Source of the DNA: an uncultured Cytophagales bacterium
GTDB taxonomy: Bacteria; Bacteroidota; Bacteroidia; Cytophagales; Bernardetiaceae
Assembly (NCBI GenBank): GCA_963761725.1
Contig: CAVXHP010000006.1
Span: 637,534-701,533 of the forward strand
Length of the DNA: 64,000 nt
Direction of reading: 5' to 3'
Shown: piece after piece, positions 6,819 to 61,358 of the stretch
Position numbering within the stretch: position 1 is the first letter of the stretch
How the letters are laid out: each line of letters starts with the position of its first letter
The notes under the pieces: generated by a model
The model's input: only the letters and a program-made list of their open reading frames with translations
What the model was told of the DNA's origin: nothing
The model's database searches: none
Program-made: the position numbers and the translations under genes

Positions 6819-6820
6819 TC

Positions 6821-6925
6821 AGTTATCAGTTATTAGTTATTAGTTATTAGTTATTAGTTATTAGTTATTAGTTATTAGTTATCAGTTATTAGTTATTAGT
6901 TATCAGTTATTAGTTATTAGTTATA
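6821..6925. repeat. Heptamer tandem repeat (AGTTATY) x15, starting right after the stop of 5979..6818
   Basis: Direct reading: agttatc/agttatt units with no interruption over 105 nt. Confidence 0.9.
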
Positions 6926-6983
6926 GAGTGCGAAACTGCGTTTCTCTGATAATTATTGTAAATGAAAGTTTTTTAATAAAAAA

Positions 6984-7043
6984 AATTCGTAATTCGTAAT
7001 TCGTAATTCGTAATTCGTAATTCGTAATTCGTAATTCGTAATT
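6984..7043. repeat. Heptamer tandem repeat (AATTCGT) x8, between convergent gene ends
   Basis: aattcgt repeated 8 times then a partial unit. The same heptamer recurs at 47771-47795 and degenerate copies occur at 49041 and 54455-54532. Confidence 0.9.
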
Positions 7044-7060
7044 ATAATAAAATTAACTGA

Positions 7061-8386
7061 TTACTGTTCACTGATTACTGACTTAAGTTCCCAGTTTGCA
7101 GCATCTTGGTAGATTTCTCTGTTTGCTTCTTGAAATGCTTTTTGTGCTTCTGCGTAGTTTTCCATTCGTTTATAACATAACCCTAACAGAAAATAGTATT
7201 TCGAACGGTCTTCGTTTTCTAGTTTTGGAAACTGTTTGAATAGTTCTTTTAATACTACAATTCCCTCCTTATCTCTCACTGTTTTATAATTAGAAAGAGC
7301 TTTTAAAAAGTAGATTTCGTGTTTATTTTTTTCTAAAAACAAACACGAATCTGCCATTTTTATAGCTTCATTATACCGTTTTTCGTGTACATAAAGGCGT
7401 GTAAGATCAGCATAATAATTTGCATTTCTCTCCTTTGAATACTCTACTTTTCTTCTCAAAAAATTAATCACATCAGATTTGTCATCTTTTCGTCCTTCTA
7501 CTTGATTGATAAAAATTTGTGCAGGCGAATAATCTGGCTTTATAATAAGAGCAGTTTGGAGATAGCGAAGACTTCTATCAAAATCATATAGAAAAAAATA
7601 AACATAACCCAAATTATAATAATATTGAGGTGCCGTATTTTCTAACTCTGTTTTAAGTTTTTCATCCTTTATGCGTGCATAATACGTTTTCATTTCTTCT
7701 AAATCTTGCATACGAAAAGCACAACTGGTATAAATAAAAGCAGCTTTTTGAATGGGGTAAGCGTTTGAAGACGTTTTTTCTAAGATAGCTTTTGTGAGTT
7801 TTTGAGCCGTTTGATAGTCTGAATTTTGATACAAAATATTCGCTAAACAAAGAGCAATAGGAGGAGGAATATTATTTATATCTTCACTTTTGAGATAATC
7901 AGTTGCATAGCCTAGCGTTTTTTTATCAAATTTACTAACCTGATCAGAAAGAATAATTATACTTCCTAAAATTATACTTTTCTCTTCTTTATCAGAACTA
8001 GAAACATGTGATAATGCTGTTTCATAGTACGAAAATGCTTGTGGAATAGAATCCACTTTTTCATGCAAAATCCCTAATCTATAATTGGCTTCAAAATTAG
8101 TTTTGTCTACTTTAATGGCTTCTTTGTAGAGTTCAACAGCTTTTGGAATGTTTTTTAATTGTTCTAAATAAAAACCTGTATAATATAATAGTTCTGTATT
8201 TTCTGAATCTGCACTTAATTCTGTTCTCAAAAGATTTAATCCATCTTGAGGGTTTCCATTTTGAGCCATTTCTACAGCTTGTGTGTAAACTTTTGGTTGT
8301 GCTTGTAAAAAATTTACAGTAAAAAGTATAAAAAATAGAAAACTATTCAAAATAAAAAATCTAATAAATAACAAATTATTTCTCAT
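7061..8386 (-). CDS. TPR-repeat protein with N-terminal signal peptide
   Basis: Hydrophobic N-terminus. Recurring TPR-like A/Y/L patterns (ELYKEAIKVDKTNFEANYRLG, AFSYYETAL, AEAQKAFQEA). Confidence 0.7.
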   Translation of the reverse strand: MRNNLLFIRFFILNSFLFFILFTVNFLQAQPKVYTQAVEMAQNGNPQDGLNLLRTELSADSENTELLYYTGFYLEQLKNIPKAVELYKEAIKVDKTNFEANYRLGILHEKVDSIPQAFSYYETALSHVSSSDKEEKSIILGSIIILSDQVSKFDKKTLGYATDYLKSEDINNIPPPIALCLANILYQNSDYQTAQKLTKAILEKTSSNAYPIQKAAFIYTSCAFRMQDLEEMKTYYARIKDEKLKTELENTAPQYYYNLGYVYFFLYDFDRSLRYLQTALIIKPDYSPAQIFINQVEGRKDDKSDVINFLRRKVEYSKERNANYYADLTRLYVHEKRYNEAIKMADSCLFLEKNKHEIYFLKALSNYKTVRDKEGIVVLKELFKQFPKLENEDRSKYYFLLGLCYKRMENYAEAQKAFQEANREIYQDAANWELKSVISEQ

Positions 8387-9247: not shown

Positions 9248-9448
9248 CACAAGTTGCAATCAGATTCATAAAGAACTTTTAATTTACACAAAAATACAAA
9301 ATCAAGTTTGTTTTCTTAAAACATAATTTGAAAAGTAGTGATTAGTTTTATAAAAATTTGGTAACAAACTAAAATAATAAATTAAAATTCGTATTTTGGA
9401 TTAATTTAGAATAGAATAATTTATACAAATACATATATATAAAATTTT

Positions 9449-11515
9449 ATGGGAGATTTAAATGTACGTATAGCAGATAATCAGCTTGACCTCAATGAAT
9501 TTACAAGGCATTTATTAAAAGATATTCAAGCTCTGGATATGATGCTCAAAAAAGATTGCTTTGATAATGAGCAGATGCATATTGGAGCAGAACAAGAAAT
9601 TTGTTTGGTCGACGATCATGGAAAACCCTCCGCTACCTGTTTGGAAGTTTTGGAAGCATTAAACAATGAAAAATTCACAACCGAATTAGCTCGTTTTAAT
9701 GTTGAATGTAACCTAGAACCTCAACCTTTTAAAGGAGATTGTTTTTCCAAATTGGAAGCCGAAACATTAGGATTATTGAAGCAATTGGAAGAAGTTACCA
9801 AAAAACATGATATTGATTATGTCTTGACAGGAATACTTCCCACCATTCGAAAATTTGACCTTACAACAGATAATATTACGCCTTTAGATAGGTATTATGC
9901 TCTCATGAATGCACTCAAAAAACTAAGAGGAAATGAATCCTATGAACTTAAAATTGAAGGAATTGATGAATTAAATACAACACAAGATACGGCACTTGTT
10001 GAGGCGTGCAACACCAGTTTTCAGGTTCATTTACAAATCAAGCCAGAGGAGTTTGTAGCCAAATATAATGTTGCTATGGCTATTTCTGCACCTATTTTGG
10101 CAGCAGCTTGTAATTCTCCGATGCTTTTTGGAAAGCGTCTTTGGAGTGAAACTCGGATTGCACTTTTCCGTCAATCGGTTGATACTCGTATTGCTTCGGA
10201 GCATTTGCGTGAACGTAGTCCTCGTGTAATGTTTGGTAATAAATGGCTTAAAGGTTCTATTTTAGATTTGTACCGTGAAGATATTATGCGTTTTAGAGTT
10301 TTGCTAACTACTGATATTGATGAAGATGCTTTAAAGATGGTGCAGGAAGACAAAACGCCTAAACTTCGTGCTTTAAATGTTCATAATTCGACGGTCTATC
10401 GTTGGAATCGTCCTTGTTATGGCATAAGCCCGAATGGAAAACCCCATTTGAGAATTGAAAATAGGATTTTACCAGCAGGTCCTACAGTTGTAGATGAGGT
10501 AGCAAATGCTGCTCTTTGGATTGGTGCCATGAATGCTTTTGAAGACACTTATCCAGATGTGAGTGAAATAATGGAGTTTGATGATGCTCGTGCTAATTTT
10601 ATGAACGTAGCTAGACATGGTTTGCGTGTTGATGTAAGGTGGGTAAATGGTAAAAAAATGAGCGTAAAGAATCTACTTTTGAAGGAAATAATTCCGATGG
10701 CAAGAAAAGGATTAGAAAAAGCAAAAGTCAGTCAGACGGATATTGATAAGTATATGGGAATTGTGGAAGCTCGTGTAAAATCCGAACAAACAGGCTCTTC
10801 TTGGATGTTACAATCCTATTCCAAACTCATCAAACAGACTACAAAAGAGGAAGTAATGACAGCCATTACCGTTGCCATTGCAGCCAAACAAAAAAGTAAT
10901 AAGCCGATTCATACATGGAAATTAGCAACCATTGAAGATATTTCAGATTGGCAACCGTCCGATTTATTAGTAGAGGAATTTATGGATACCGACCTTTTTA
11001 CTGTTACAGAGGACGATGTACCCGAATTTGCAGCCGATATTATGGACTGGCAAAAAATCCGTTATATTCCTGTGGAGTGTGGAAATGGTGTTTTGGGTGG
11101 TTTGGTTTCTTCTCGTATTTTGTTGCGTCATTTCAAATCAAATCCTAGTCAGTCAAATCAAAAAAATAATATAACAACAGTAAAAGATTTGATGATAAAA
11201 GATGTTTATACCGTTTCACCAGAAGCAAATATCCACGAAGCAATGGATTTGATGCGGAAATACAAAGTCGGTTGTTTGCCTGTGGTGGCAAATAATAATC
11301 TAGTTGGAATAATTACAGAAGCTAATTTTCTGAATATTACAGCTAGTCTTTTGAAACGAATTGCAGAGCGAAGAAGAAAACGTAAGGAAGACAATGAGAA
11401 AAGTGATAAAACTAAAGTTAGTTCCAAACCTCAAACCATAAAAGATAGAGAAATTAAGATTCAAGGAGTAGATTCTCTTCGAAATGTAATGGCTGATGGA
11501 GAAGAGGAGGAATAA
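9449..11515 (+). CDS. Glutamate--cysteine ligase family 2 (GCS2/YbdK-like carboxylate-amine ligase) domain fused to a C-terminal CBS pair and a Lys/Glu-rich tail
   Basis: N-terminal ~470 aa resembles GCS2 carboxylate-amine ligases (HIGAEQEICLVD, FQVHLQI). Two CBS modules (TVTEDDV...IRYIPV; VYTVSPEANIHEAMDLMRKYKVGCLPVVANNNLVGIITEANFL). Confidence 0.65.
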   Translation: MGDLNVRIADNQLDLNEFTRHLLKDIQALDMMLKKDCFDNEQMHIGAEQEICLVDDHGKPSATCLEVLEALNNEKFTTELARFNVECNLEPQPFKGDCFSKLEAETLGLLKQLEEVTKKHDIDYVLTGILPTIRKFDLTTDNITPLDRYYALMNALKKLRGNESYELKIEGIDELNTTQDTALVEACNTSFQVHLQIKPEEFVAKYNVAMAISAPILAAACNSPMLFGKRLWSETRIALFRQSVDTRIASEHLRERSPRVMFGNKWLKGSILDLYREDIMRFRVLLTTDIDEDALKMVQEDKTPKLRALNVHNSTVYRWNRPCYGISPNGKPHLRIENRILPAGPTVVDEVANAALWIGAMNAFEDTYPDVSEIMEFDDARANFMNVARHGLRVDVRWVNGKKMSVKNLLLKEIIPMARKGLEKAKVSQTDIDKYMGIVEARVKSEQTGSSWMLQSYSKLIKQTTKEEVMTAITVAIAAKQKSNKPIHTWKLATIEDISDWQPSDLLVEEFMDTDLFTVTEDDVPEFAADIMDWQKIRYIPVECGNGVLGGLVSSRILLRHFKSNPSQSNQKNNITTVKDLMIKDVYTVSPEANIHEAMDLMRKYKVGCLPVVANNNLVGIITEANFLNITASLLKRIAERRRKRKEDNEKSDKTKVSSKPQTIKDREIKIQGVDSLRNVMADGEEEE

Positions 11516-47795: not shown

Positions 47796-48280
47796 TAAAC
47801 CTTATAAATCATTTTGTAGTGTTTTATTCCACTTTCATCAAAAATATCTCCATCTTTTTTGAATCCACAACGCTCATATAACGAAACAGCAGTTAATTGG
47901 GCATGTAAATAAATCATCTCTACAGTCTTGAATTCTTCTTTTTTCTGAATTTGTTCTAAAATAAACTCTACCATCTTTTGTCCTGTTTTTTTTCCTCTGT
48001 CTTCTTCCAAGACAGCAAAACGCTCCAATTTTATTCTCTTAGGAGAATTATCTTTATGCTTTTGTGTTATTCTAAAACGAGCCGTTCCGACAGCTTTTCC
48101 GTTGCCATACTTCTCTTCATCAATTGCTAAAATATGAGTAGCTATTTTGTCTAACCCATCCAAATCATCTTCTTCTGGGACATCTTGTCCTTCTATAAAA
48201 ACAATCCTGCGAATAGAAAAAGCACGCTCTAGTTTTTCTGAGTTTTCTGATGGGGTGCCTTCGAAAATCTGAATATTCAT
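47795..48280 (-). CDS. GNAT-family N-acetyltransferase
   Basis: Acetyl-CoA binding motif RFAVLEEDRGKKTGQKMV and the C-terminal YERCGF. Confidence 0.7.
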   Translation of the reverse strand: MNIQIFEGTPSENSEKLERAFSIRRIVFIEGQDVPEEDDLDGLDKIATHILAIDEEKYGNGKAVGTARFRITQKHKDNSPKRIKLERFAVLEEDRGKKTGQKMVEFILEQIQKKEEFKTVEMIYLHAQLTAVSLYERCGFKKDGDIFDESGIKHYKMIYKV

Positions 48281-48408
48281 AATAAATTGAGAAAAAATAA
48301 GTAAAAAAGATACTTTTTAAAATTAGGTTCTGTAATTTTGCAGCCACAAAAATAATTTATTTAATTTACAAAGGACAACGTTTTACTAAAAAATATCTTC
48401 AAATCATT

Positions 48409-48688
48409 CAATATGAGTGTCATTAATTCAATTCAAAATAGCTCTTCATTAGCTACAGAGTAGCATAACCTTTAGCTTCGGTGACTCGCTGCTCTTCGGG
48501 TGTAGAAAGGAATAAAAAATTAATTTTAAAAGCTACAGAGTAGCGTAACCTTGTTTTTAATTTTAATTTTCTCGCAAATCACAGAGTTTCGCTACTCTGT
48601 AGCTCTAATAAAGCTGTTTGTAACGTTCTACCAAGGTTACGTTGCTCTGCAACTGAAAATCAAATACTTAAAAATGACACTCATATTG
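48409..48688. mobile_element. MITE-like element copy 3 (280 bp), TSD AATCATT
   Basis: Perfect TIRs. 7-bp flanking duplication (48402-48408 / 48689-48695). Differs from copy 1 by a few SNPs. Confidence 0.8.
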
Positions 48689-48747
48689 AATCATTAATGA
48701 CTTAATTAAAAGATTTAATAGACAAGTTATATTTTAAGTTAATTTTA

Positions 48748-48999
48748 CAATATGAGTGTCATTGGCGAAAATCGAAACAAGTATTTGTTAGCTACAGAGT
48801 AGCGTAACCTTTGTAGAAAAAGAATAAGAATTGATTTGAAAAGCTACAGCGTAGCGTAACCTTATTTTTAATTCTAATTTCATGAAAGTTGCAAGGTTTC
48901 GCTACGCTGTAGCTCTAATGAAGGTTATTATTTACTGTTCTACCAAGGTTACGTTGCGATGCAACTAAAACTCAATACTTAGAAATGACACTCATATTG
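48748..48999. mobile_element. MITE-like element copy 4 (252 bp), TSD ATTTTA, 59 bp downstream of copy 3
   Basis: Perfect TIRs. Flanking ATTTTA (48742-48747 / 49000-49005). Internal hairpin carries a compensatory pair change (CAGCGTAGCG/CGCTACGCTG vs CAGAGTAGCG/CGCTACTCTG in copy 1). Confidence 0.8.
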
Positions 49000-49086
49000 A
49001 TTTTAATTCGTAGTTTTTAATTGACTTCGTCGCTTTGACAGGTCGTAATTCGTAATTATTTAATTCATTCATAAATTCATAAAATT

Positions 49087-49554
49087 ATGATTCAACGTAT
49101 TCAAAGTATTTTTTTATTAATGGTTTCTATTTTTATGGGACTTACTGTTTTTCTTCCTATCTGGGGAAAATCAGACGGAACAAATAAAATTGAGATGAAC
49201 TCTATCGAAATGGTACAGACTTTAGCAGGTGATGTAGTAATGGAGCAAACAACCGTTTATCTTGCCATTATTGCAGCTCTAACGGCTATTCTTTCTTTTG
49301 GAAATATTTTTAATTATAAAAATCGTCGTTTTCAAATGAAAATTTCACTTTTTTGTACTCTTCTTATCGCTATTTTTATTGGAGCCTCTACTCTCCTAAC
49401 ATTCTATGCACAAGACAATTTTTCTCCTCAAGTAGGCGGAGTATTTGGTACGGGTTATTTTCTGCCTGTAGCAGCAGTTTTATTTAATTGGCTTTCTATT
49501 CGTTTTATTAAAAAGGACGAAGATATGGTTCGTAGTGCAGACCGTTTGAGATAG
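49087..49554 (+). CDS. DUF4293-like small membrane protein
   Basis: N-terminus MIQRIQSIFLLM and four predicted TM helices are typical of the Bacteroidota DUF4293 family. Confidence 0.55.
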   Translation: MIQRIQSIFLLMVSIFMGLTVFLPIWGKSDGTNKIEMNSIEMVQTLAGDVVMEQTTVYLAIIAALTAILSFGNIFNYKNRRFQMKISLFCTLLIAIFIGASTLLTFYAQDNFSPQVGGVFGTGYFLPVAAVLFNWLSIRFIKKDEDMVRSADRLR

Positions 49555-49646
49555 ATTTTGCACACAGTTTTAATCAAAAAAGCCATTTCTATTTATGTAG
49601 AGATGGCTTTTTTGATGTAGTATAACTTATGATTTGTAACCAAAAA

Positions 49647-50834
49647 TTAATTCATAGTATTATCTGGTGCGTCTATTTTATCTCCCTTATTGACATTAAA
49701 TAAAAGAGAAAAACGAATGGTATCAGCAAGGGGATGTTGTTGTTGATTTGGAATAAGATACGCAAAATCAAACCCGAAAACTTGATAACGCAAGCCCAAA
49801 CCTACCGTAAAATAACGACGATTTCCTTTGTCTTGGTTTTCGTGGAAATATCCACCACGAAGTGCAATCAAATCAGCATACCAATATTCTGCACCCACCG
49901 CAAAAATCATTTCCTGTACTTCTTCACTAAAACCATTAGGAGCATCTCCGAAAGATTGAAAAATAGAAGACAATACAGGAGCGTTAGCACCGTTAGTAGC
50001 TGTATTTTCAGGAGTAGGAACTAATAATTTGCTCATATCAAAAGCAAGTGTCAGTTTATTAAATTCATCAAACTGACCATTAAAAGCCGTTCCGATACGC
50101 AAGTTAGCTGGCAAATAATCTTGTTGAGCAGCATCATTATAAGTAACTGGAGCACCCACATTTGAAATATTTACTCCCAATGCCCAATCTCCTTCAAAAC
50201 TAGTAAAGTTGAGTTTACTCTTATAGAACATCGATACATCTACTGCACCTGTATTGGCTGCTTTTACATTATTTACAGGACCATTATTGGTTACATTTCC
50301 TGCCAAATTGGAGTGAATATAACGAAACGTACCTGCAATACTCAATTTTTCGGAAAGCTGTTGTGCAAAGGTAACATCAATAGCTGCTTCACGAGGATTA
50401 AAATTTTGCAAAGGTTCGCCTCTAGCATCTGTAAATTGAAGACTTCCCATATCAAAATAACGGAAAGAAACCCCTATCGTCTGTGTTTTGGAAATTCGTT
50501 TTACACCACTAACATAACCCAGCCACATATCATTTACTAATCTCTGTAACCACGGAGAATACGCAACTCCAAACGACCAATCATTTTCTATAAAAGCTAA
50601 TTTTGATGGATTCCAATGCACTGAATTTGCATCAGGAGAAGTGGCTGCACCCAAATCTCCCATACCAGCGGCACGAGAATCAGGTCCCACTAATAAAATA
50701 GGAACAGCAGTTGTGATTACTCTGCGTCCAGTAGAATCCAAACCAATTTGAGCTGAAACTGTATTAAAATTTGAGTAGAAAAAACTTACTATTAAGCAAC
50801 CTAAGACGGCTGCAAGAACTTTACGTATCTGCAT
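49647..50834 (-). CDS. PorV/LptO-like outer-membrane beta-barrel (T9SS-associated, FadL-like family)
   Basis: Signal peptide. N-terminal motif VPILLVGPDSRAAGMGDLGAATSPDANSVHWNPSKLAF resembles the PorV/PorQ family signature. Beta-barrel-like remainder. Confidence 0.5.
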   Translation of the reverse strand: MQIRKVLAAVLGCLIVSFFYSNFNTVSAQIGLDSTGRRVITTAVPILLVGPDSRAAGMGDLGAATSPDANSVHWNPSKLAFIENDWSFGVAYSPWLQRLVNDMWLGYVSGVKRISKTQTIGVSFRYFDMGSLQFTDARGEPLQNFNPREAAIDVTFAQQLSEKLSIAGTFRYIHSNLAGNVTNNGPVNNVKAANTGAVDVSMFYKSKLNFTSFEGDWALGVNISNVGAPVTYNDAAQQDYLPANLRIGTAFNGQFDEFNKLTLAFDMSKLLVPTPENTATNGANAPVLSSIFQSFGDAPNGFSEEVQEMIFAVGAEYWYADLIALRGGYFHENQDKGNRRYFTVGLGLRYQVFGFDFAYLIPNQQQHPLADTIRFSLLFNVNKGDKIDAPDNTMN

Positions 50835-51202
50835 ACAATTATTTAATTTTTAGAAATATAAAATTTCGAATATAATTTACTAATATAATTTAGTTAAGAG
50901 CTGAAGGGATTAAGCCTCGTTATATCTTTTTTTATTTGAAAATAATACTTTTAAAACTACTCTACAATCAGAGTATTATTTTTGGATAGACGTGTTGAGA
51001 CAAAAGATAAGTAAAGTTTTTATTCATAGGCTAATCAGCACGCAAACTAGGGGAATTACCAAAGGGTTTGGCAAAAATGGATATTTAAGGACTACTACAA
51101 AAATATAAAAAAAAATTATTAAATGAGACTAAACGAAATTAAATCTATTCAAAACTCAACCAAAATATTGTTCTTTTTCAAACAATTGATTCATTATATG
51201 AT

Positions 51203-52250
51203 TTATTTATTAATAAATTGTTTTATTAGAAGAATAATTTTTTGAACCTGTTTTACATAAAAAGGCAGTTTGTTGTAATCTAAAACAAAAAATAATTTTT
51301 CTTCACTTCCAAAACTAGTATTAAAACGAGCTATTTCTTTTTCTTGTGCCGATTCAAAATCTAAGATTTTAGATACATTACCAATTGGTTCCTTTTCTTG
51401 ATTACTTTTTTCTTGAATAAACTTATCTAAAAACCACCTTCTGCTTTCATTTTTTTGACTATTTTCTTTTGTAGCTGCATTAAATAGATAAATCCATTTT
51501 GTACTAGAGTAATTTTGATTATTCTTTTGATAAAAGGACTCACTTTTTATCAACATAATTCCACTCACAATTTTGCCTTTGCTATTTTGAATATAAACCA
51601 ATTTAGTCAAATCTTTTTCTATCAATATTTTGAAAAGAATTTTCAAAGTTTGCTTCGCCTGACTTGATACTCCATTTTTCAAAAAAACACTTTCTTCAAA
51701 AAAACCATATAATAAATCAATATTATTACCTTCTATAATTTTGAAATTTTGTTTTTTAGCTCTATTGATTTTGTTTTTAGTATTCTGTTTATAATTTTGA
51801 CGAATTTTAGAATACTTATGCTGCAAAGAAAGATGATGTGTTTTGTATTTTTTTAAAACTTTACTATCAAATACTTCTTCAAAAATCTCATTGTACTCTT
51901 CGTAATTTGTAGTATTGAATGGATAATTTGAAACTAAATCAAAATTTCTTTTGAAGTAAAATTAAAAAAGCTTTGAATTCTAAATTAGACAATTTTTGAG
52001 TAGAAAAAATTCCCAATTGTTGTGCAAAAAGAGGTATGTTGCAAGAAATAAAATTCCGTATTTTTTCTTAACAGGCAAGGGGAAGTACAGCTACATAATT
52101 TTGATTCTTATCTTCTAAAATAAATGCTTCCCAAGCAGGAGAAACACAATCCAAATACCACGAAAAGGCATAAATTATATTTTCTTTTGAAGAAGAAATA
52201 CAATTATCCCATTTTTTTTTGTTTATTTGATGATGTTTGAAATACTTCAA
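51203..52250 (-). pseudogene. FemAB/BioF2-like GNAT acetyltransferase (PF13480-like), apparently disrupted (fragments 52068-52250 and 51203-51826)
   Basis: N-terminal fragment (KKKWDNCISSSKENIIYAFSWYLDCVSPAWEAFIL) resembles the start of PF13480 proteins. Combined span ~349 codons matches family length. Uncovered segment between fragments. Confidence 0.4.
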
Positions 52251-52256
52251 ATGGGA

Positions 52257-52425
52257 TATTAGGAATTAGAGATTAGGAATTAGGAAAATACAGTTTTGAA
52301 TTACAGAGGTATTAGAGGAACTGCAGAGTTAGCAGGGAAATTAGGGATTAGGAATTAGGAAAATACAAATATAGTTTTGAACCACAGAGGTAAGAGAGTT
52401 AAGAGAGGAACTGCAAAGTCAGCAT
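52257..52425. repeat. ~80-bp tandem direct repeat x2 (ATTAGGAATTAGGAAAATACA..GTTTTGAA..ACAGAGGTA..GAGGAACTGCA.AGT.AGCA)
   Basis: Two adjacent units with ~80% identity read directly. Followed at 52476-52496 by (AACTGAT)3, the reverse complement of the CAGTTAT heptamer at 6821-6925. Confidence 0.7.
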
Positions 52426-52473
52426 AGCAATAAATTTTATACTTCTAACTTTATTCAACTGGTTACATTACTG

Positions 52474-53367
52474 CTAACTGATAACTGATAACTGAAAAGC
52501 CATTTCTTGCTGAATTTGCTGTGCTGCTTTGGCTGCCATTTCTGCAAAATCTCTGTCTTTGCTGGCATAGATAATCTGACGAGAAGAGTTTATCAGAAGT
52601 CCACATTCTTTTGTAAGTCCTGCTTTTGATACTTCTGCTAAATTTCCTCCTTGAGCTCCAACTCCTGGAACCAACAAAAAATGATTGGGTATTATTTTGC
52701 GAATATTCTCTATGTATTCTGCCTTTGTTGCACCCACAACATACATTAGATTTTCTTCTGTCCCCCATTCTTTACTTTTTTCTAAAACTTCTTCATATAC
52801 TTTTTTTCCATTTTTGAGTTCTAACATTTCAAAATCTTCTGCACCCGAATTTGAAGTAAGAGCTAACAGAATTGTCCATTTATTTTTTATTTCTAAAAAA
52901 GGTTTTACAGAGTCTTCTCCCATATAAGGTGCAACTGTAATGGCATCACAATTCAAGTTTTCAAGAAATGCTTTTGCATATTGAGTAGAAGTATTTCCAA
53001 TATCACCTCGTTTTGCATCAGCAATAATAAAGACATTGTGAGGTAAGTATTCAATTGTTTTTTGCAGACTTTCCCACCCTTTTGTTCCTAGAGCTTCGTA
53101 AAAAGCAGTGTTTAGTTTGTAAGAAACAGCATATTTTTCTGTCGCATCAATAATGCGTTTATTAAACTCAAAAATAGGGTCTTTTGCATTTAATAAATGA
53201 AACGGAATTTTTTTAATATCACTATCCAAACCTACACAAAGGTAAGATTCTTTAGCTTTTATTTGAGAGATGAGTTTAGTGCGATTCACTTTTAATATAT
53301 GTTGTGTCGTTGGTGGAGACACCAACAACGGCGAAGAGAAATGAGTTTTGAAACCAATTTTATACAA
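52474..53367 (-). CDS. pyrF: Orotidine 5'-phosphate decarboxylase (type 2)
   Basis: [35 protein letters not shown] motifs. The N-terminal ~25 codons of the track ORF are encoded by a REP-like hairpin, so the true start is probably further 3'. The C-terminal codons overlap the heptamer repeat. Confidence 0.85.
53301..53332. repeat. REP-like hairpin GTTGTGTCGTTGGTGGAGACACCAACAACGGC
   Basis: Near-identical to 25930-25954, and shares the CCGTTGTTGGT/ACCAACAACGG core with the 40735-40918 element. Confidence 0.55.
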
Positions 53368-53444
53368 AAATAGTATTTTTAAAACTATTTTTTAGTTGAA
53401 AGCTAAAGCATTCGGTACATTTTCTTACGCTAAAGTGTAAGCTA

Positions 53445-54449
53445 CTAATATTGCTGTAATGTATTCTCCAATTCTGCTTGTATTTGTTTGGCTAATGGAT
53501 TTGGACTAAGCACACGAACCGACGAACCATATCCCAAAATCATCATTTTGAGTTCGTAATTTACAATCAAATGCAAACGAATTCTATATTCATTATCATC
53601 TTCTACCAAAACTTCCTGTGTGTGATGAAGAGGTTGAGATTTGATATACTTTCCTTGAAAAACATCAAAGCTCAAAACTACATCTTCTGGTTTTTGATTC
53701 AGAGCCGAAACACCAATACAGTAATGATAAAATTCTTCTGGATTGAATTTGGCTTGTTCGGGAGTAATGAAAAGGGACTCATCTGATGGTTCTATGTCCA
53801 TTATTCTATCCAAACCAAAGGTTCTGACTTCATTGTATTTTCTTACCCACCCAATTAAATACCACATATTACGGTATTCTTTTAATAGATAAGGATGAAT
53901 ATTGTAAGGTTTTGTATGTGGTTCATTGTGTTTTTGATAGAATATTTTGATTACATTTTGCTCTGAAATATGATAAATCAAATCCTTTAACTGGTGCGTT
54001 CCTTTTCCTTTATAGATCGATTGTTCGACTTGAATAATTCGCTGTACATTTTTTTGGATTTCCGAACTTTTAGCAATTTCCATTCCGTCCAAAACTTTAT
54101 CTACTGCACCAGAAAACTCATTGAAAATAGGTAATTCTCTAAATTCTCCCAAAAGAGATTCTACAAAAGCCATAGCAAGCTGCTCATCATCAGAAAGATT
54201 GACAGACAAAAATTTGTACTTTGCATCTGAATACGAATAGCCTTTCATTTTTTTATTGTAATCAATCGGTGCATCAAATTCATCACGCATAGCAGCCAAA
54301 TCTTTTTCGATGGTAGAAGCTGAAGAAACACCAAAACGCTCTCTACACGCCTCCAACAATTCATCTTTAGTAGGAAAAGGTTTGAATTTGCTGCGTAACA
54401 TTTGATCGATGAGCAAATAGCGAAAAAAAGCGAGTTTGGTAGCTGCCAT
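53445..54449 (-). CDS. WYL-domain transcriptional regulator (N-terminal HTH + WYL domain + C-terminal WCX-like region)
   Basis: N-terminal HTH pattern FFRYLLIDQMLRS...FPTKDELLEACRERFG. Signature WYL motif in NMWYLIGWVRKYNEVRTFGLDRI. Confidence 0.75.
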   Translation of the reverse strand: MAATKLAFFRYLLIDQMLRSKFKPFPTKDELLEACRERFGVSSASTIEKDLAAMRDEFDAPIDYNKKMKGYSYSDAKYKFLSVNLSDDEQLAMAFVESLLGEFRELPIFNEFSGAVDKVLDGMEIAKSSEIQKNVQRIIQVEQSIYKGKGTHQLKDLIYHISEQNVIKIFYQKHNEPHTKPYNIHPYLLKEYRNMWYLIGWVRKYNEVRTFGLDRIMDIEPSDESLFITPEQAKFNPEEFYHYCIGVSALNQKPEDVVLSFDVFQGKYIKSQPLHHTQEVLVEDDNEYRIRLHLIVNYELKMMILGYGSSVRVLSPNPLAKQIQAELENTLQQY

Positions 54450-54454
54450 AAATG

Positions 54455-54532
54455 AATTACGAATTATGAATTATAAAATAATCAGCGTAGCTAATTAAAA
54501 ATTACGGATTACGAAATAATAAGTGTAGCTAA
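54455..54532. promoter_or_regulatory. Two ~35-40 bp direct repeats (AATTACGAATTATGAATTATAAAATAATCAGCGTAGCTAA / AATTACGGATTACGAAATAATAAGTGTAGCTAA) immediately upstream of the WYL regulator gene
   Basis: Direct repeats read from the sequence. They contain TTACGAATT, the reverse complement of the AATTCGT heptamer. Confidence 0.5.
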
Positions 54533-54698
54533 ACGATAGTTTGGTAAAGACAATTAAAGATTATTATTTTCTTTGACTATGAAAGGCAAAACAACTTTTA
54601 TGTCAAATCATATTTCTAACAAAAAACGCATTTTAAAATGGCTTTGCCAAAAAAATAATGAGTTTTTTATTATTTGAAAGATAATGTATGCCTTATCT

Positions 54699-55784
54699 CT
54701 ACAAACTACTTTCTCGTATTTCAATCAATGCTTTTTCCAAATTAGCTACATTTGGAAGCTCTGGCAATGTAGAATTTTGATAAGCTATTTCTAAAAGTTC
54801 AATTTTTTGGTCTGCTTTTTTTAGTAGTTCTTCATACGTAAAAAAACCACTTCTTATTTGTAGTAATTCTTCTCTATTAGGTCTTTTGACAATTACTTCC
54901 TGCTTTTCCAAAATCTCAATTGCCATATCTAAAAGACGAAAAGTGTGCATCATATTTTTGGCATCGTAATTTTTGCCATGTTCAAGTGTGTTTTCATAGC
55001 GTGCCTCATTTCTATTGCTTACCCATTCCCAATACTGTTTGTATTTCTTGCAATGTGCAGCGTAACCTTCTTTATTGAAATATAGATAGGCTACTGCTTT
55101 TTCACCTTTTGGAATATTGCTCAAACTGACTTCATTTGATTCTGTATTTTTCAAAATTCCTTTATAATAAAAATCAACTTCACCTTTTTGATGAAAAAGC
55201 AAATACATATTTTTGACATGATTGACAGCCGAAAGTCCACAATTTTCTTGTTTGTAATTAGTTGATTTTAGCCATTTTTTTAATGAAATACTTGTATTTT
55301 TGTCTTGCTGATTATCCAAAATATAACAAAAATCCAAAACTGTTTTTCGTTTTTCTGGCATTGGATTAAAAATTTTCTTGTTTAATCCTTTTGCTTTTCT
55401 GATTTGTGAAAGTGCATAACCTGCAAAGGTATCTTTACATAATTTGGATAAAATATCTTCTGACTTTATCAAATCCAAAATTGGATTTTTGTAGATAATA
55501 TCTTCTTTTGAAGTATATAAAATCTCAATTATAGACGGATTATTTTTGGCTAATAGCTCTATAAAACGTTTTATTTCATAAAAAACAACATCATTTTTCT
55601 CATCGCTTACTTGTGGAACATATTCCAAACCATAAAACTGTTCTTTAGGTAGAATAAAAATTCCTTTTATATCTGTGTCCGAAGTAGGTAAATCTGTTCC
55701 GTAGGCTTTGCTTCCTGCAAGCGTTTCTAGGAGGATGAGATTTTCTTTTTTTAGGGTTTCTATGTTTATCATAAATTGTAGCAA
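54699..55784 (-). CDS. Pol-beta-superfamily nucleotidyltransferase domain protein (361 aa) with uncharacterised helical C-terminal region
   Basis: Canonical NTase motif hG[GS]x9-13Dh[DE]h in LAGSKAYGTDLPTSDTDIKGIF. No other motif recognised. Confidence 0.6.
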   Translation of the reverse strand: MLQFMINIETLKKENLILLETLAGSKAYGTDLPTSDTDIKGIFILPKEQFYGLEYVPQVSDEKNDVVFYEIKRFIELLAKNNPSIIEILYTSKEDIIYKNPILDLIKSEDILSKLCKDTFAGYALSQIRKAKGLNKKIFNPMPEKRKTVLDFCYILDNQQDKNTSISLKKWLKSTNYKQENCGLSAVNHVKNMYLLFHQKGEVDFYYKGILKNTESNEVSLSNIPKGEKAVAYLYFNKEGYAAHCKKYKQYWEWVSNRNEARYENTLEHGKNYDAKNMMHTFRLLDMAIEILEKQEVIVKRPNREELLQIRSGFFTYEELLKKADQKIELLEIAYQNSTLPELPNVANLEKALIEIRESSL

Positions 55785-56089
55785 TATTTTTTAAAATTAT
55801 CATTTCAAGAGAACAGAAAAATCATACAATAAAAGCAAATAAGTGTAAATTTAAGTTCAATTTTATATTTTCTAGCTTTTTCTATTGCTCTTTTTTTTAG
55901 ATTTGGTTTTGCCATAGTTTTCGACGACTATTTTGGGTAGTCGAAGTACAAGGTATAATAGAAGTGCTAGATTGAGTATTTAGAATTTCATTGTATATTT
56001 GTGTTTCTAATTTTCACTACTTTGGTAAATCCTGAAAATATCATACAGGAAACTAAACTAGGATACAAACGCATAACGAAGACTATAAT

Positions 56090-57271
56090 ATGAGATTGAT
56101 AAAATTTACCATTCTTTTTATCCTGATAACTCAGACCTTGCTTGCTCAAAAACCAATAACCAATGAGTCTTCAGCCATCGATAAAAAAGCATTGGAACTC
56201 CCTGACTCATTGACAAAAAACACAGATCTTATTGCAAATTATATTACTTCCAACTTTGCAACTGATGAAGACAAATCACGAGCAATATTTATTTGGGTTA
56301 CATCAAATATTGAATATGACATTGAAAATATGTTTGCAATGAATTTTTACGAAAAAAAAGAAGAAAAAATAGCAAAACCTCTTAAAACAAGAAAAGGAAT
56401 CTGCGAAAATTATGCTTTATTATTTACAGATATCTGTATTAAATCAGGTATTAAATCTTTTGTAGTTGAAGGTTATACAAAGCAAAATGGTTTTACTGAC
56501 TATATTCCTCATGCTTGGAGTGCAGCACTAATTGACAGTTCATGGGTTCTCTTTGATCCAACTTGGGGTTCAGGTTATGTAGATGGTGGAAAGTTTTTTA
56601 GAAAAATAAATAATGAATACTATAAAGCTAATCCAACAACACTCATCAAATCTCACATCCCTTTCGATTACTTATGGCAATTTGTGAATTATCCAATAAC
56701 AAACCAAGAATTTTACGAAGGAAAGATACAACAAGACAAAACTAAGCAGTTTTTCAACTTCAAAGACACATTGCAAGTTTATGAGAAACAGAATCATATT
56801 GACCAGTTAATTTCTACAGCATATCGTGTAGAAAAAAACGGAGTAAAAAACTCAATGATTTTTGATCAACTTCAACATTTGAAATTAGAAATAGAAAATG
56901 ACAGACAAAGAAAAACTGTAAATCTATACAATTCAGCAATTGTTGAATATAATAATGCAATTAATGGTTTAAATGAATTTATAAATTACAGAAACAAAAA
57001 ACTCACGCCAAGTAAAACTGATCCTGAAATACAGAGCATGATTGATATTATAGACAGTAAAATAGAAGAAGCAAAAGGTAAATTAGACCGAATTGCAAAT
57101 CCTGATGTAAACACAGCTAATATGATTCAGCAATTAACTAAATCAATAAATGATGTTTCAAAACAAGTGGAAGAGCAACAAGATTGGCTAACACTATATT
57201 TTAGTAAAGGTAAATTAGGACGGAAATCTATGTTTTATAAAGTAAGTTGGTTTGGTGTTCCTTTAAATTAA
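56090..57271 (+). CDS. Secreted transglutaminase-like cysteine-protease-fold domain protein with C-terminal coiled coil
   Basis: Signal peptide. Cys-His-Asp triad context GICENYALLF (Cys), IPHAWSAAL (His), VLFDPTWG (Asp). Confidence 0.65.
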   Translation: MRLIKFTILFILITQTLLAQKPITNESSAIDKKALELPDSLTKNTDLIANYITSNFATDEDKSRAIFIWVTSNIEYDIENMFAMNFYEKKEEKIAKPLKTRKGICENYALLFTDICIKSGIKSFVVEGYTKQNGFTDYIPHAWSAALIDSSWVLFDPTWGSGYVDGGKFFRKINNEYYKANPTTLIKSHIPFDYLWQFVNYPITNQEFYEGKIQQDKTKQFFNFKDTLQVYEKQNHIDQLISTAYRVEKNGVKNSMIFDQLQHLKLEIENDRQRKTVNLYNSAIVEYNNAINGLNEFINYRNKKLTPSKTDPEIQSMIDIIDSKIEEAKGKLDRIANPDVNTANMIQQLTKSINDVSKQVEEQQDWLTLYFSKGKLGRKSMFYKVSWFGVPLN

Positions 57272-57379
57272 AAGTTGTTTATCCCCTGCTTCTAATCTTA
57301 ATAGGCTTTTTTTATACCTTTCACTCATTTCCAAATGAGTAAGTAATCTATATTCAACACCTTGTCCTGTATTTACTAG

Positions 57380-57593
57380 TATAACGTGAACTCGGTATTA
57401 TGATTTAGTTCATTTGTGTATTTCCCCATTATCAACGTCTATTTTTTCAAAATAGACGATTGCTAAGGGAGTTTTGTGTTTTTTTACCTTAGCAATCGTC
57501 TGTTATCGCAGATAACAAGACGTTGATAATGGTGAAAAAATACAAAACGGTTACTAATAAGAACTATTTTAATACCGAGTTCACGTTAGTATA
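57380..57593. repeat. Nested palindromic element (214 bp): outer 20-bp IR TATAACGTGAACTCGGTATT / AATACCGAGTTCACGTTAGTATA enclosing perfect 14-bp IR pairs (CCATTATCAACGTC/GACGTTGATAATGG; GACGATTGCTAAGG/CCTTAGCAATCGTC) and the central palindrome TTATCGCAGATAA
   Basis: All arms read directly and verified as reverse complements. Confidence 0.65.
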
Positions 57594-57721
57594 TACACTA
57601 AAAAAACTCAACCAAAAACTTCAAGCAGAAATTAAGGAGGTTACAACTCTGACAGTTAGAAACTGTCAGCTATGTGACACAATGAAGGCATCACTTTTGC
57701 GTTTTGCTAACAAAATGTATC

Positions 57722-57777
57722 ACAGACTTCCCAGTCTGTGCAAAAATATAGTATTTCTAACAGACTAGGAAGTCTGT
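57722..57777. promoter_or_regulatory. Inverted repeat with internally palindromic arms (ACAGACTTCCCAGTCTGT ... ACAGACTAGGAAGTCTGT), 24 nt upstream of the C1 peptidase start
   Basis: Each arm is a 7-bp stem hairpin with a 4-nt loop (TCCC / AGGA). 20-nt AT-rich spacer. Same architecture as 16480-16543 and 9151-9247. Confidence 0.45.
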
Positions 57778-57800
57778 TTTACTTATAAATTCTATCTCAA

Positions 57801-59240
57801 ATGAAAATTCCATTGTATAAATATAATTCAAAATACGCTTTTTTGTGTGTTTTCCTGTTTTGTTTTACTCTTAATTCTGCTTTTCTTTTTGCTCAACAAA
57901 GACCAACACTTGATAATCGGGGAAAAGGATTGAACTTAGAAGCAGAAATGGAAACAACCAAAGATATTCCCTTAAAATCTCAACAAACTCAAGAGAGTTA
58001 TAGAGGTTTGCCTTCTGCCGTTTCTTTAAAGCAATACTGCCCAACACCAGGCGATCAGGGAACATATGGAACGTGTGTAGGTTGGACGACAGCCTACGCT
58101 GCACGTACTATCTTAGAGGCTCGTCAGTTAGATTTACGCTCACAAGAAGAAATTGATGAACTTATCTTTTCACCTGGTTTTATTTACAAATTAGTAAAAG
58201 AAGAACAAGATAATGATTGTACCTATGGTGCAATTATGACCGATGCACTCAAAAAAATGCAGGTTCATGGAGTAGCAAAGCGAGCCAGTTTTCCAGAGCA
58301 ATGTGTCGATTATGTACCAGAAAAAATCTATAAAGAAGCCGAAAATTATAAATTAAAAGATTATGTTCGTTTATGGAACTTCAATTTTACGCAAGAAGAG
58401 CAAATTTTGGCACTCAAAAAAAGCCTAACAGAAGGAAATCCTGTGGTAATTGGGATGGAAGCACCGCCTTCTATTTACGATGCAAAAGAATTTTGGCGAC
58501 CTACTGAAAAGGCAGGAAATGGCTGGGGAGGACACGCAATTTGCGTTATTGGTTTTGATGACAAAAAAGGTAAAAAAGGTTCTTTCGAAATAATGAATAG
58601 TTGGGGAACAGGCTGGGCAAATGGTGGTTTTACGTGGATAGAGTATGACACCTTTACTGATTTTGTTCGTTTTGCGTATGAACTTGTACCGTATTACAAA
58701 CCCAAAAAAGAACGTCCTTTACTTGCTGGAAGTTTGCGTTTTGAGCTTGCCAATGGAAACAAAATTGACTTAGAAAAGAATGGAATAGCTTCTTATAAGA
58801 CGTCTCAAATTTTCAATGGAGGAACTAATTTTCGTCTTTATCTTTCCAATTTTGAGCCTGCTTATGTTTATGCTTTTGCAACTGATAAAACCAAAAATAT
58901 ACAAGTTGTATTTCCTCACAAAGCCTATATAAGTCCGTTTTTGCCCTATCATAATGGGGAAATTGCATTTCCAGATGAAAAGCATTATCTCACAATGGAT
59001 AACGTAGCAGGAACAGATTATTTTTGCGTTATTTACTCTCGTTATCCTTTAGAAATTAATGAAATTTATAAGGAACTTGGAGAACGAAGAGGAGATTTGA
59101 GAGTGGGCTTGGAAGAGATTTTGGGAAATAAACTTATCAGAACTAATGAAATACTATATTCTGCTAATGAAGTGAAGTTTTCTACAAGTTCAATAAAGGG
59201 AACAGTTGCCTTTTTTGTGGTAGAATTAGAACATAAATAG
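57801..59240 (+). CDS. Secreted papain-like (C1 family) cysteine peptidase with C-terminal extension
   Basis: Signal peptide. Catalytic Cys context QGTYGTCVGWTTAYA, His in GGHAICVIGFDD, Asn/Trp in NSWGTGWANGG. Confidence 0.8.
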   Translation: MKIPLYKYNSKYAFLCVFLFCFTLNSAFLFAQQRPTLDNRGKGLNLEAEMETTKDIPLKSQQTQESYRGLPSAVSLKQYCPTPGDQGTYGTCVGWTTAYAARTILEARQLDLRSQEEIDELIFSPGFIYKLVKEEQDNDCTYGAIMTDALKKMQVHGVAKRASFPEQCVDYVPEKIYKEAENYKLKDYVRLWNFNFTQEEQILALKKSLTEGNPVVIGMEAPPSIYDAKEFWRPTEKAGNGWGGHAICVIGFDDKKGKKGSFEIMNSWGTGWANGGFTWIEYDTFTDFVRFAYELVPYYKPKKERPLLAGSLRFELANGNKIDLEKNGIASYKTSQIFNGGTNFRLYLSNFEPAYVYAFATDKTKNIQVVFPHKAYISPFLPYHNGEIAFPDEKHYLTMDNVAGTDYFCVIYSRYPLEINEIYKELGERRGDLRVGLEEILGNKLIRTNEILYSANEVKFSTSSIKGTVAFFVVELEHK

Positions 59241-59436
59241 AATATTTTTTAAAGAATGATTAAACAAATTTATATACTTTATGTTAAGAAAATAGAAGTA
59301 ATACTATTCTTCTGAACCTTCTGATTTTAGACTTTTATCTCTCATTTGCCAATTACCTATCCATTACTATTTTTTTGAATTGATAGAAATTTGTAGCATA
59401 AAAAACTACTTTTTAACCTTTTATTTTTACGACTTT

Positions 59437-59898
59437 ATGCAACAACTTATTTACGAAGATTATGATAAGCCAAATGATGCTTATTATAAGTTATATGTAG
59501 ATACTACTGACAACTATTTTTACATTGATATTGGAGGCGATACGAGTCTAGAATTTGACACAAAGACTCATCTTAGATTTTTGGAAGAAGTTGAGAAATA
59601 CCAGTACAGCAACTTTGTGTTTAATCTTACAAATCAAAAGTCATCTACTGTAAAAGGACGTATCTGGTTTGTGTCTTATGTTATGAAAAAAGGGTATAGA
59701 ATACTTAGAGGCAAAAAAATGAGAGGTGCAGTACTAAGCTCGTCCAATTCCTTACAAAGAGCTGTTATTTCTATCTTGATGAGTTCTGCAACTCGTGTTG
59801 TTCCTAATGCTTATATGAAGTCATTCGATTCTAAGTCATTGGAAGAAGCCATAAATTGGATAAAAGCAGGCAAAGAAGAAACGTTACTAGCAAGCTAA
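59437..59898 (+). CDS. Hypothetical protein
   Basis: ORF only. The ATG at 59437 is preferred over the TTG at 59380. Confidence 0.35.
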   Translation: MQQLIYEDYDKPNDAYYKLYVDTTDNYFYIDIGGDTSLEFDTKTHLRFLEEVEKYQYSNFVFNLTNQKSSTVKGRIWFVSYVMKKGYRILRGKKMRGAVLSSSNSLQRAVISILMSSATRVVPNAYMKSFDSKSLEEAINWIKAGKEETLLAS

Positions 59899-60221
59899 AA
59901 TCAGCTACTTTATTTTATCTATTTTGATGAAAAATGTTTTTTAAACTCCCACTTTTATACATTAACTTTATCTGCGAAAAGGAGAAAAGCAAATGTCATC
60001 TATTGAGTTTTATAGATTCAATAAGAGAATATCTGATAATATGACATTTTGAGTGATAACAAATGTTTGTCTATCATTTTTCTGTCGTTTTTTGTCATTT
60101 CTCTGTTTTAATTATTTTTGAAAGAAAAACAAAAAAAACAGAGATACTACATCATTCGCTAAATTACACTACCTAAAAAAGTAGTCTATTTTCCTATAAA
60201 ATTATAGTACCAATTACTATT

Positions 60222-61358
60222 TTATTCATTCAAAGGAATTACTTTTCCAGGTCTTTGCCTATCAACTACTCCTTCTTCTACCAGCATTTGTTGTATCTGT
60301 TCGGCTTTCTTTTTACTCCAATAATTTCCATACAAGATTTTGAATGTAAAATCAGGACCATAATGGTCTACCTCTATATAAGCTTCTCTGTAACCAGCTT
60401 CTATAAGTCCTGCACAAAACTCTTGAGCTCCTTCTTGTTCTGGAAAATCTGTTAGATGAATTACCCAACGCCTTTTATCAATTCTATGTCCTTTATGGTC
60501 GTACATAAAATCATTTTTAGGGTCAAAGGGTTGATAAGGTGGATAAAAAGTTGCAATTTCTAGTACTTTATTGTCTTTCTTGAAAGGCATAAACCAATCG
60601 TATTGAACCACAGAAAATGCTTGTATGTCTTCATCAACAGGTTTTACATAGATATAATAGGGATTTCCGTCTTCTTCTTTTTCCATTCTTGCAAGCTCTC
60701 CATTTACAGTTGGTGTATAAACTGTAATGAGAATATTCAAACGGCGGTCATCTTCTGGAGATTCTACAAAACTTTCAGGGGTTTTGGGAAGAGCTGTCAG
60801 TACATCCATTTTTCCATCAAAATTGAAATCACCAAATGATTCTATTCCTGGTAAAATACTATTGAAAGCATAAGCAACTACTTTGTCTGGATTTGTAATA
60901 TCAAATAAATTATAACACTTAAAACGACATCCTTTTGTCATACATTCTTCGCTAAGTGTATAAAAACAAAGGTATTTCCTTCCCAAGAAGTCAAATTCAT
61001 AGACATCTAAAAAAATACTTAAATATTGAACCAACGAACGCTCAATACTACAATAAAATTTGAAATGTTGCCCATTTATATAAACGCCTGTTGGAGCAGG
61101 ATTAATAATTGGATGAAATTGTGGACCATTGAGAACATAAAGAGAAAGAGGAATACTTGACCCTTGATAATCCGTAAAACTAGTATCACTCTTTTCTCTA
61201 GGAAGAGACGGAGTAGGTTGCATCGTAATGGTAATAGGCTCTTGACTAAGCTGTCCTATTTGATAATCTTGTGCCGAAGCAGAATGTACAAATAAAATAA
61301 AGGAACCAATAAATAAAACAAATGCGATTATATTTTTCATAAACTTCGCTTTTTTCAT
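60222..61358 (-). CDS. Secreted hypothetical protein with conserved Cys motif and SPOR-like C-terminal domain (paralog A)
   Basis: Signal peptide. Shared block with the next gene (YLSIFLDVYEFDFLGRKYLCFYTLSEECMTKGCRFKCYNLFDITNP). C-terminus (AGYREAYIEVDHYGPDFTFKILYGNYWSKKKAEQIQQML) resembles SPOR peptidoglycan-binding repeats. Confidence 0.5.
   Translation of the reverse strand: MKKAKFMKNIIAFVLFIGSFILFVHSASAQDYQIGQLSQEPITITMQPTPSLPREKSDTSFTDYQGSSIPLSLYVLNGPQFHPIINPAPTGVYINGQHFKFYCSIERSLVQYLSIFLDVYEFDFLGRKYLCFYTLSEECMTKGCRFKCYNLFDITNPDKVVAYAFNSILPGIESFGDFNFDGKMDVLTALPKTPESFVESPEDDRRLNILITVYTPTVNGELARMEKEEDGNPYYIYVKPVDEDIQAFSVVQYDWFMPFKKDNKVLEIATFYPPYQPFDPKNDFMYDHKGHRIDKRRWVIHLTDFPEQEGAQEFCAGLIEAGYREAYIEVDHYGPDFTFKILYGNYWSKKKAEQIQQMLVEEGVVDRQRPGKVIPLNE

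Follow-up and report, generated by a model that had tools for sequence, protein, structure and literature searches.

A divergent RlaP-family nucleotidyltransferase gene and a neighbouring, probably independent DriD/PafBC-like WYL regulator gene in an uncultured Bernardetiaceae bacterium

The minus strand of a 64,000-nucleotide stretch of DNA (the window; 64 kb) from an uncultured Cytophagales bacterium of the family Bernardetiaceae carried a gene for a DNA polymerase beta-type nucleotidyltransferase (NTase), followed, after a 249-bp spacer containing a tandem repeat, by a gene for a WYL-domain transcription factor. With a probability of roughly 60%, this locus comprises an orphan, divergent RlaP-family RNA 3'-end NTase beside an independently transcribed, probably autoregulated WYL factor resembling DriD and PafBC, the repeat being a local duplication. 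A first-pass annotation of the same sequence had proposed a BrxR/CapW-type regulator paired with an NTase whose architecture recurs in cGAS/DncV-like and other signalling or RNA-repair NTases, the repeats being plausible WYL-binding operators. Both open reading frames and the direct repeat were present as it had described; the features discussed below were the following.

54699..55772, minus strand: RlaP-family "long" NTase, 357 aa, with G20-S21, D32, D34 and D61; the C-terminal ~220 aa lie outside the Pfam model.
54594..54656, minus strand: non-coding block, candidate WYL promoter/operator, ~150-200 nt upstream of the WYL ATG, with the palindrome CATTTTAAAATG.
54493..54530, minus strand: distal 38-nt unit, matching the ancestral conserved leader segment (TTAGCTACACTNATTATTTCNTAAT...), from repeat finding, TRF and comparison with relatives.
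54455..54492, minus strand: proximal 38-nt unit, the strain-specific tandem duplicate, with the conserved TAATTCGTAATT at its end, 5 nt short of the ATG.
53445..54449, minus strand: winged helix-turn-helix (wHTH)-WYL-WCX transcription factor, 334 aa, from Pfam WYL and WCX, PDB profile, Foldseek and neighbour-joining tree.

The NTase scored 62.1 bits (gathering cutoff 23) against the Pfam family RlaP (RNA-ligase-associated Pol-beta; PF10127, "RNA repair pathway DNA polymerase beta family"), but only in residues 15-130, equivalent to positions 18-139 of the 249 in the profile; the remaining ~225 residues, forming the C-terminal half, had no Pfam match. RlaP was one of the families that the first-pass annotation had put forward for testing, and the Pol-beta motif and uncharacterised C-terminal half that it had reported were also found. 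The motif (GSKAYGTDLPTSDTDIKG) was present, and G20, S21, D32, D34 and D61 were invariant among 24 homologues. In a profile-profile comparison (hhalign) of the NTase family with an alignment of the canonical, short RlaP, residues 14-154 were matched with a probability of 96% (E 1.9e-9), and the five invariant residues fell on the GS, DxD and D of the canonical enzyme. Identity between the long proteins and canonical RlaP was ~20-23%, over the first ~150 residues only. The reading frame remained open to a TTG at 55784 (54699..55784, minus strand, 361 aa), and the ATG at 55772 is most likely the true start, judging by orthologue alignments that begin with M-I/T-I (357 aa).

Among 8,000 scored candidates, 5,826 were significant homologues of the NTase, and all the named ones belonged to the Bacteroidota. 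The closest were from Bernardetia spp. (82-84% identity), which points to a Bernardetia-like source for the window, and a plateau at 50-58% identity comprised Cytophagales, Saprospiraceae, Flavobacteriales, Sphingobacteriales, Chitinophagales and Bacteroidales. By sequence, the NTase is classified as a divergent member of a Bacteroidota-wide, ~355-aa "long" RlaP subfamily (RlaP-long). In its AlphaFold (AF2) model (predicted local distance difference test, pLDDT, 86), the NTase domain at the N-terminus is followed by a beta-rich insertion at ~145-232 and a helical C-terminal region (H234-356). The modelled order of NTase domain and helical domain, the above-threshold Pfam match and the GS...DxD...D core are shared with RlaP; unlike RlaP, the window protein is ~100 aa longer, carries the beta-rich insertion and has a C-terminal half outside the Pfam model. 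Searches of the PDB by sequence with the NTase, with its family profile and with the canonical RlaP profile gave no meaningful matches, in a copy of the PDB without the PfRlaP structure.

Four residues of the NTase outside the catalytic core, C149, H185, C241 and C112, were invariant, and C178 was nearly so. C149, C178 and H185 sit within the insertion specific to RlaP-long and C241 directly follows it; C149, C178, H185 and C241 could constitute a metal-binding site.

The RlaP biochemistry that we found consists of one 2025 preprint on two canonical Pseudomonas enzymes. These proteins (PfRlaP and PaRlaP) attach one or two nucleoside monophosphates (NMP) to the 3'-OH of RNA, favour mimics of damaged tRNA and are encoded within rtcB-rtcA operons (bioRxiv 10.64898/2025.12.29.696909). 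By analogy, we infer a role in RNA repair for RlaP-long, which would extend damaged RNA such as cleaved tRNA at its 3'-OH by one or a few nucleotides.

The contexts of RlaP-long were surveyed in 80 genomic loci (L001-L080), 72 of which had enough flank for short RlaP genes to be counted. In 42 of these 72, the gene immediately upstream, in the same orientation, encoded a canonical ~255-aa RlaP (PF10127, 239 bits); in 26, as in the window, the locus had none. RtcB lay within 10 kb in 12 of the 80 loci; other neighbours were Ro/TROVE (4/80), a ~750-aa unknown protein (4/80) and a Band_7 protein (3/80). WYL-WCX regulators were found near RlaP-long in ~11 of the 80, typically divergent and upstream of the operon. 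Given these short RlaP, RtcB and WYL contexts, the RlaP-long subfamily is part of an RNA-repair neighbourhood in some Bacteroidota, and the conserved tandem of two NTases suggests that the short and long enzymes act together. No description of this tandem was found in the literature, within the small body of papers that we found. The subfamily is large, uncharacterised, conserved across the Bacteroidota, usually in tandem with canonical RlaP and provided with an extra domain. The window NTase differs from this arrangement in having no RNA ligase or short RlaP as a partner: neither RtcB nor a short RlaP was found anywhere in the 64 kb, and RlaP-long would be an orphan here.

The WYL protein matched Pfam WYL (E 1.5e-13) and WCX (E 1.5e-10); its N-terminal HTH was below the Pfam threshold (HTH_11, E 0.16). 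Its AlphaFold model (pLDDT 79) began with a winged helix and aligned at full length, in Foldseek, with DriD (E 2.7e-13, ~339 columns), CapW (E 2.6e-10) and BrxR (E 7e-9), as well as with PafBC, so that the HTH is supported by the model, in agreement with the HTH plus WYL regulator first described. The profile of the WYL family retrieved from the PDB, in descending order, PafBC (1.4e-16), PafB (9e-13), DriD (1.1e-11), BrxR (2e-4) and CapW (5e-4). The matches to BrxR and CapW were the weakest of these sequence matches and were confined to the WYL domain, and phmmer with the WYL protein reached neither BrxR (7qfz) nor CapW in the PDB at E <= 0.1. These searches served as a proxy for the BLASTP threshold (E < 1e-5) by which the BrxR family was defined, a family ~97% proteobacterial (PMC9122601). 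The assignment to the BrxR/CapW type was not supported: the three-domain wHTH-WYL-WCX architecture is shared and there is a structural match, but by profile and modelled fold the protein is nearer to the activators DriD and PafBC, with BrxR and CapW the weakest, and no defence system adjoins its gene.

DriD (Caulobacter) and PafBC (Actinobacteria) are WYL activators that sense single-stranded DNA (ssDNA). The window protein shares with them the full-length wHTH-WYL-WCX arrangement, as well as its best profile and fold matches, but only ~16-18% identity, and its own family is specific to the Bacteroidota and found in housekeeping neighbourhoods. Its WYL domain is predicted to sense a nucleic-acid damage signal, and the protein probably regulates its own gene.

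The adjacency of the two genes was restricted to one genus. RlaP-long was followed by WYL in B. litoralis DSM 6794, two further assemblies, a "Flexibacter sp." metagenome-assembled genome (MAG) and a metagenome contig, and the pair was adjacent or nearly so in all seven Bernardetia-clade loci examined. In two of the strains, Bernardetia sp. ABR2-2B (L084:11171-16039) and OM2101 (L086:11159-15991), a 4.9-kb TIR-TIR-WD40 gene (1,610-1,622 aa; the copies 79.5% identical) stood between them. The C1-peptidase region upstream of RlaP was present in the window and in the loci of 5 of the 6 relatives, approximately as conserved as the RlaP-WYL adjacency, so synteny at the level of the genus has no discriminating power. 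Beyond the genus, the orthologues nearest to the window WYL, those of Hugenholtzia roseola (58%), of a Bernardetiaceae MAG (54%) and of Rapidithrix (54%), had no RlaP in their vicinity. Among 80 metagenomic loci of WYL relatives (33-41% identity), RlaP, RtcB and Ro were absent from 79, which sat within lineage-specific housekeeping synteny blocks; the exception was a Bernardetia-like locus with RlaP.

The WYL regulators that do accompany RlaP-long were of another kind. Nine of the ~11 formed an exclusive clade in a neighbour-joining tree of 204 sequences, in which the window WYL grouped with stand-alone WYL proteins outside that clade; the other two were weak matches. The nine loci (L032, L037, L038, L043, L045, L046, L052, L064 and L078) were from Pedobacter, Dysgonomonas, Niastella, Chryseobacterium, Flavobacterium and an unclassified Bacteroidetes MAG, and in them the WYL gene was divergent to operons of RlaP-short, RlaP-long and RtcB, with or without Ro/TROVE, Band_7 and the ~750-aa protein. 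In Pedobacter (L064), for example, a minus-strand WYL gene (6185-7204) preceded Band_7, RlaP-short, RlaP-long (RlaP tandem at 9250-11041) and RtcB. This clade sits in the position that RtcR occupies in proteobacteria; as in RtcR-rtcBA, a nucleic-acid-sensing regulator adjoins RNA-repair enzymes, RlaP-long being a component of the Bacteroidota operons. Unlike either system, the window has no RtcB, Ro or short RlaP, and its WYL gene lies in tandem downstream rather than divergent upstream and belongs to a different clade. On its sequence, the window WYL is classed as a member of a Bacteroidota-wide stand-alone WYL family. Since it lies outside the RNA-repair clade and the link is lost beyond the genus, the adjacency in Bernardetia was interpreted as a coincidence or as an independent, recent recruitment. 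The first-pass annotation had held that the pairing would be coincidental if the NTase clustered with housekeeping families and its orthologues never occurred with WYL regulators. Such co-occurrence does exist, at the ~11 loci above, but with a different clade or with weak matches, which leaves that refutation half complete; a conserved pairing of the two window genes was not supported.

The repeat in the spacer consisted of two copies of 38 nt (54455-54492 and 54493-54530), 79-80% identical (Tandem Repeats Finder, TRF, score of 100) and far beyond chance. A period-7 sub-array (TRF) was located at 54452-54474, with heptad sub-repeats T(C/A)NTAAT in the proximal copy. The alignment of the regions upstream of WYL covered six related genomes (L081, L084-L087 and L089); the 38-nt unit was present once in each, and most of the proximal copy had no counterpart there. 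The second copy is therefore a strain-specific duplication, and the two direct repeats, first proposed as plausible operators, represent this strain's tandem duplication of a conserved leader rather than an ancestral operator pair. The leader segment itself (TTAGCTACACTNATTATTTCNTAAT...TAATTCGTAATT), rich in CGTAAT heptads, was conserved and abuts the WYL ATG.

Further upstream, a block of 63 nt (54594-54656, minus strand) was identical at 57-61 of its 63 positions to five of the six related genomes. In the comparisons used for this block, the four-fold degenerate sites of the WYL gene were only 58-71% identical, and conservation so far above these sites indicates purifying selection on the block. 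In both strains with the TIR-WD40 insertion, the block remained directly upstream of WYL. Its persistence beside WYL despite the insertion argues that it is a candidate promoter/operator of WYL itself and that WYL is independently transcribed. An 11-bp inverted-repeat operator like that of BrxR was not recognised upstream of the WYL gene, where only the short AT-rich palindrome CATTTTAAAATG was seen, inside the conserved block. The motifs upstream of WYL, the block included, had no further copies elsewhere in the window, and these elements were not detectable upstream of the Hugenholtzia, Bernardetiaceae MAG and Rapidithrix orthologues. The Rfam scan of 53300-56200 gave no match at E <= 1, so the conserved spacer block corresponds to no known RNA family, Y RNA or riboswitch. 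As a ~60-nt block upstream of the Bernardetia WYL genes, it offers a ready probe for the operator of a WYL regulator family.

The TIR-WD40 gene had entered precisely between the stop codon of RlaP-long and the conserved block upstream of WYL, at a point that corresponds approximately to 54657-54698 of the window spacer, and the region upstream of RlaP-long was poorly conserved. This clean insertion, the block that stayed attached to WYL, the poor conservation upstream of RlaP-long and the lack of a recurring motif argue for independent transcription of the two genes. They would thus be two separately transcribed chromosomal genes, neighbours only in Bernardetia, the WYL factor having its own promoter/operator in the conserved ~190 nt upstream of it.

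Several observations weigh against this interpretation. The low identity to canonical RlaP means that the substrate of the long subfamily could differ from that of the Pseudomonas enzymes. No terminator was predicted between the NTase and WYL genes, which makes co-transcription by read-through possible; promoter-like matches in the same scan did not exceed the shuffle expectation. Of 6 Bernardetia genomes, 5 (the window, at 56063-56074 on the minus strand, plus L081, L085, L086 and L087) also carried TGCGTTT, a 7-mer of the block upstream of WYL, in the region upstream of RlaP-long, although in two independent contexts only, near the beginning of the divergently oriented neighbour, and without significance window-wide. 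Finally, in at least five genera from several Bacteroidota orders, genes of the related WYL clade recurred in divergent orientation beside RlaP-short/RlaP-long/RtcB operons. Through this recurrence, a functional affinity between WYL and RlaP does exist in the phylum, and the adjacency in Bernardetia could be a second, independent instance of it.

The alternative closest to these observations is that of a regulatory pair, in which WYL would sense damaged nucleic acid (ssDNA, or RNA fragments and 2',3'-cyclic-phosphate ends) and induce RlaP-long as a minimal RNA-repair module, taking the part that the CARF regulator RtcR has for rtcBA. The consistent proximity in the Bernardetia clade and the sister WYL clade coupled divergently to RlaP/RtcB/Ro operons both speak for it. 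In addition, WYL factors commonly control adjacent stress genes, as SiwR does (PMC10693628), and WYL domains have been linked to 2',3'-cyclic RNA ends (PMC7824862). We consider it plausible but less likely: the window WYL is outside the RNA-repair-linked clade, its closest relatives outside the genus and 79 of 80 metagenomic ones have no RlaP or RtcB nearby, a 4.9-kb gene separates the two in two strains, the window motif searches found no shared operator motif and synteny with an unrelated C1 peptidase is about as well conserved.

An extension of the regulatory pair, which we regard as unlikely, is that in Bernardetia a WYL protein of the stand-alone family was independently recruited beside RlaP-long as a sensor of RNA damage (cleaved tRNA or 2',3'-cyclic-phosphate ends, not ssDNA), inducing RtcB-independent 3'-end repair with the heptad-rich leader and the invariant block as operators. 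If true, the protein would be the WYL counterpart of RtcR, a CARF regulator, and damaged RNA would join the known ligands of WYL transcription factors. Apart from the window, the distinct clade at an RtcR-like position before RlaP/RtcB/Ro operons gives a hint that RNA damage may be among the signals sensed by WYL domains.

Very improbable is a minimal or degraded anti-phage system, in which the NTase, under WYL control, would produce a nucleotide or oligonucleotide signal as in CBASS or Hailong, the effector being lost here and kept as TIR-WD40 in relatives. The NTase had no family match in PADLOC and is assigned by Pfam to RlaP; its structural neighbours included neither cGAS/DncV nor other CD-NTases, with Foldseek E values all above 0.03. 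HalB, the defence NTase of Hailong that synthesises oligo-dA, resembled it in fold only (15% identity, Foldseek E of 0.14), has 217 aa and lacks the insertion. No HalA-type membrane or channel gene and no canonical effector, Cap effectors included, adjoins the pair in the window, where the NTase gene is flanked by those for the WYL factor and for a divergently encoded transglutaminase-like protein. The TIR-WD40 gene was found in 2 of 171 loci, being absent from the window and the other 169, which fits a lineage-specific insertion. The NTase family is ~50-58% identical across Bacteroidota classes, and its chromosomal contexts vary, are mostly unrelated to defence and often include RlaP and RtcB; this pattern fits a vertically inherited core function rather than a mobile defence gene. 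An antibiotic-modifying NTase (ANT/Lnu-like) with an adjacent regulator is scarcely credible, because its weak matches (TM scores of 0.2-0.3) reflect the common fold of a minimal NTase plus a helical domain, there was no Pfam or NCBIfam match to a resistance family, and the family is found together with RlaP and RtcB rather than in resistance contexts.

The flanking genes encode PyrF (pyrF), PorV, the transglutaminase-like protein (divergent, beside the NTase), the C1 peptidase and a GNAT acetyltransferase; the neighbourhood is a housekeeping one and no defence island, and PADLOC and the neighbour annotation recognised no defence genes among the immediate neighbours. The lack of an adjacent canonical effector, already remarked in the first-pass annotation, was thus confirmed, and a cGAS/DncV-like or defence-signalling reading of the NTase was not supported. 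With this correction, a "WYL + signalling NTase" pair drops out of the candidate defence systems, and the NTase takes its place in the RlaP family of RNA repair; the window locus is ordinary and holds no new defence system. The window carried no tRNA or tmRNA genes, and neither the NTase nor the WYL protein matched a family in NCBIfam.

Two candidates in the spacer were rejected. A stem-loop with arms at 54585-54598 and 54635-54648 had a right arm that was not conserved and showed no covariation across genomes. An antisense frame of 32 codons over the 63-nt block (54580-54678, plus strand; MKGKTTFMSNHISNKKRILKWLCQKNNEFFII) was open in seven genomes, but its start codon was not conserved (B. 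litoralis has none) and its termini differed, so that it is probably no gene.

Two observations were made in the flanks of related strains. In OM2101, HNH_2 and HTH_3/DNA-methylase genes lay just downstream of WYL; together with the TIR-WD40 insertion, this cargo indicates that the flanks of WYL acquire defence-like genes in some strains. In a close relative (L085:5583-8170), an array of five tandem paralogues of 152-159 aa, without Pfam match, was located upstream of the C1 peptidase; positions 48000-61000 of the window, the section covered, showed no counterpart.

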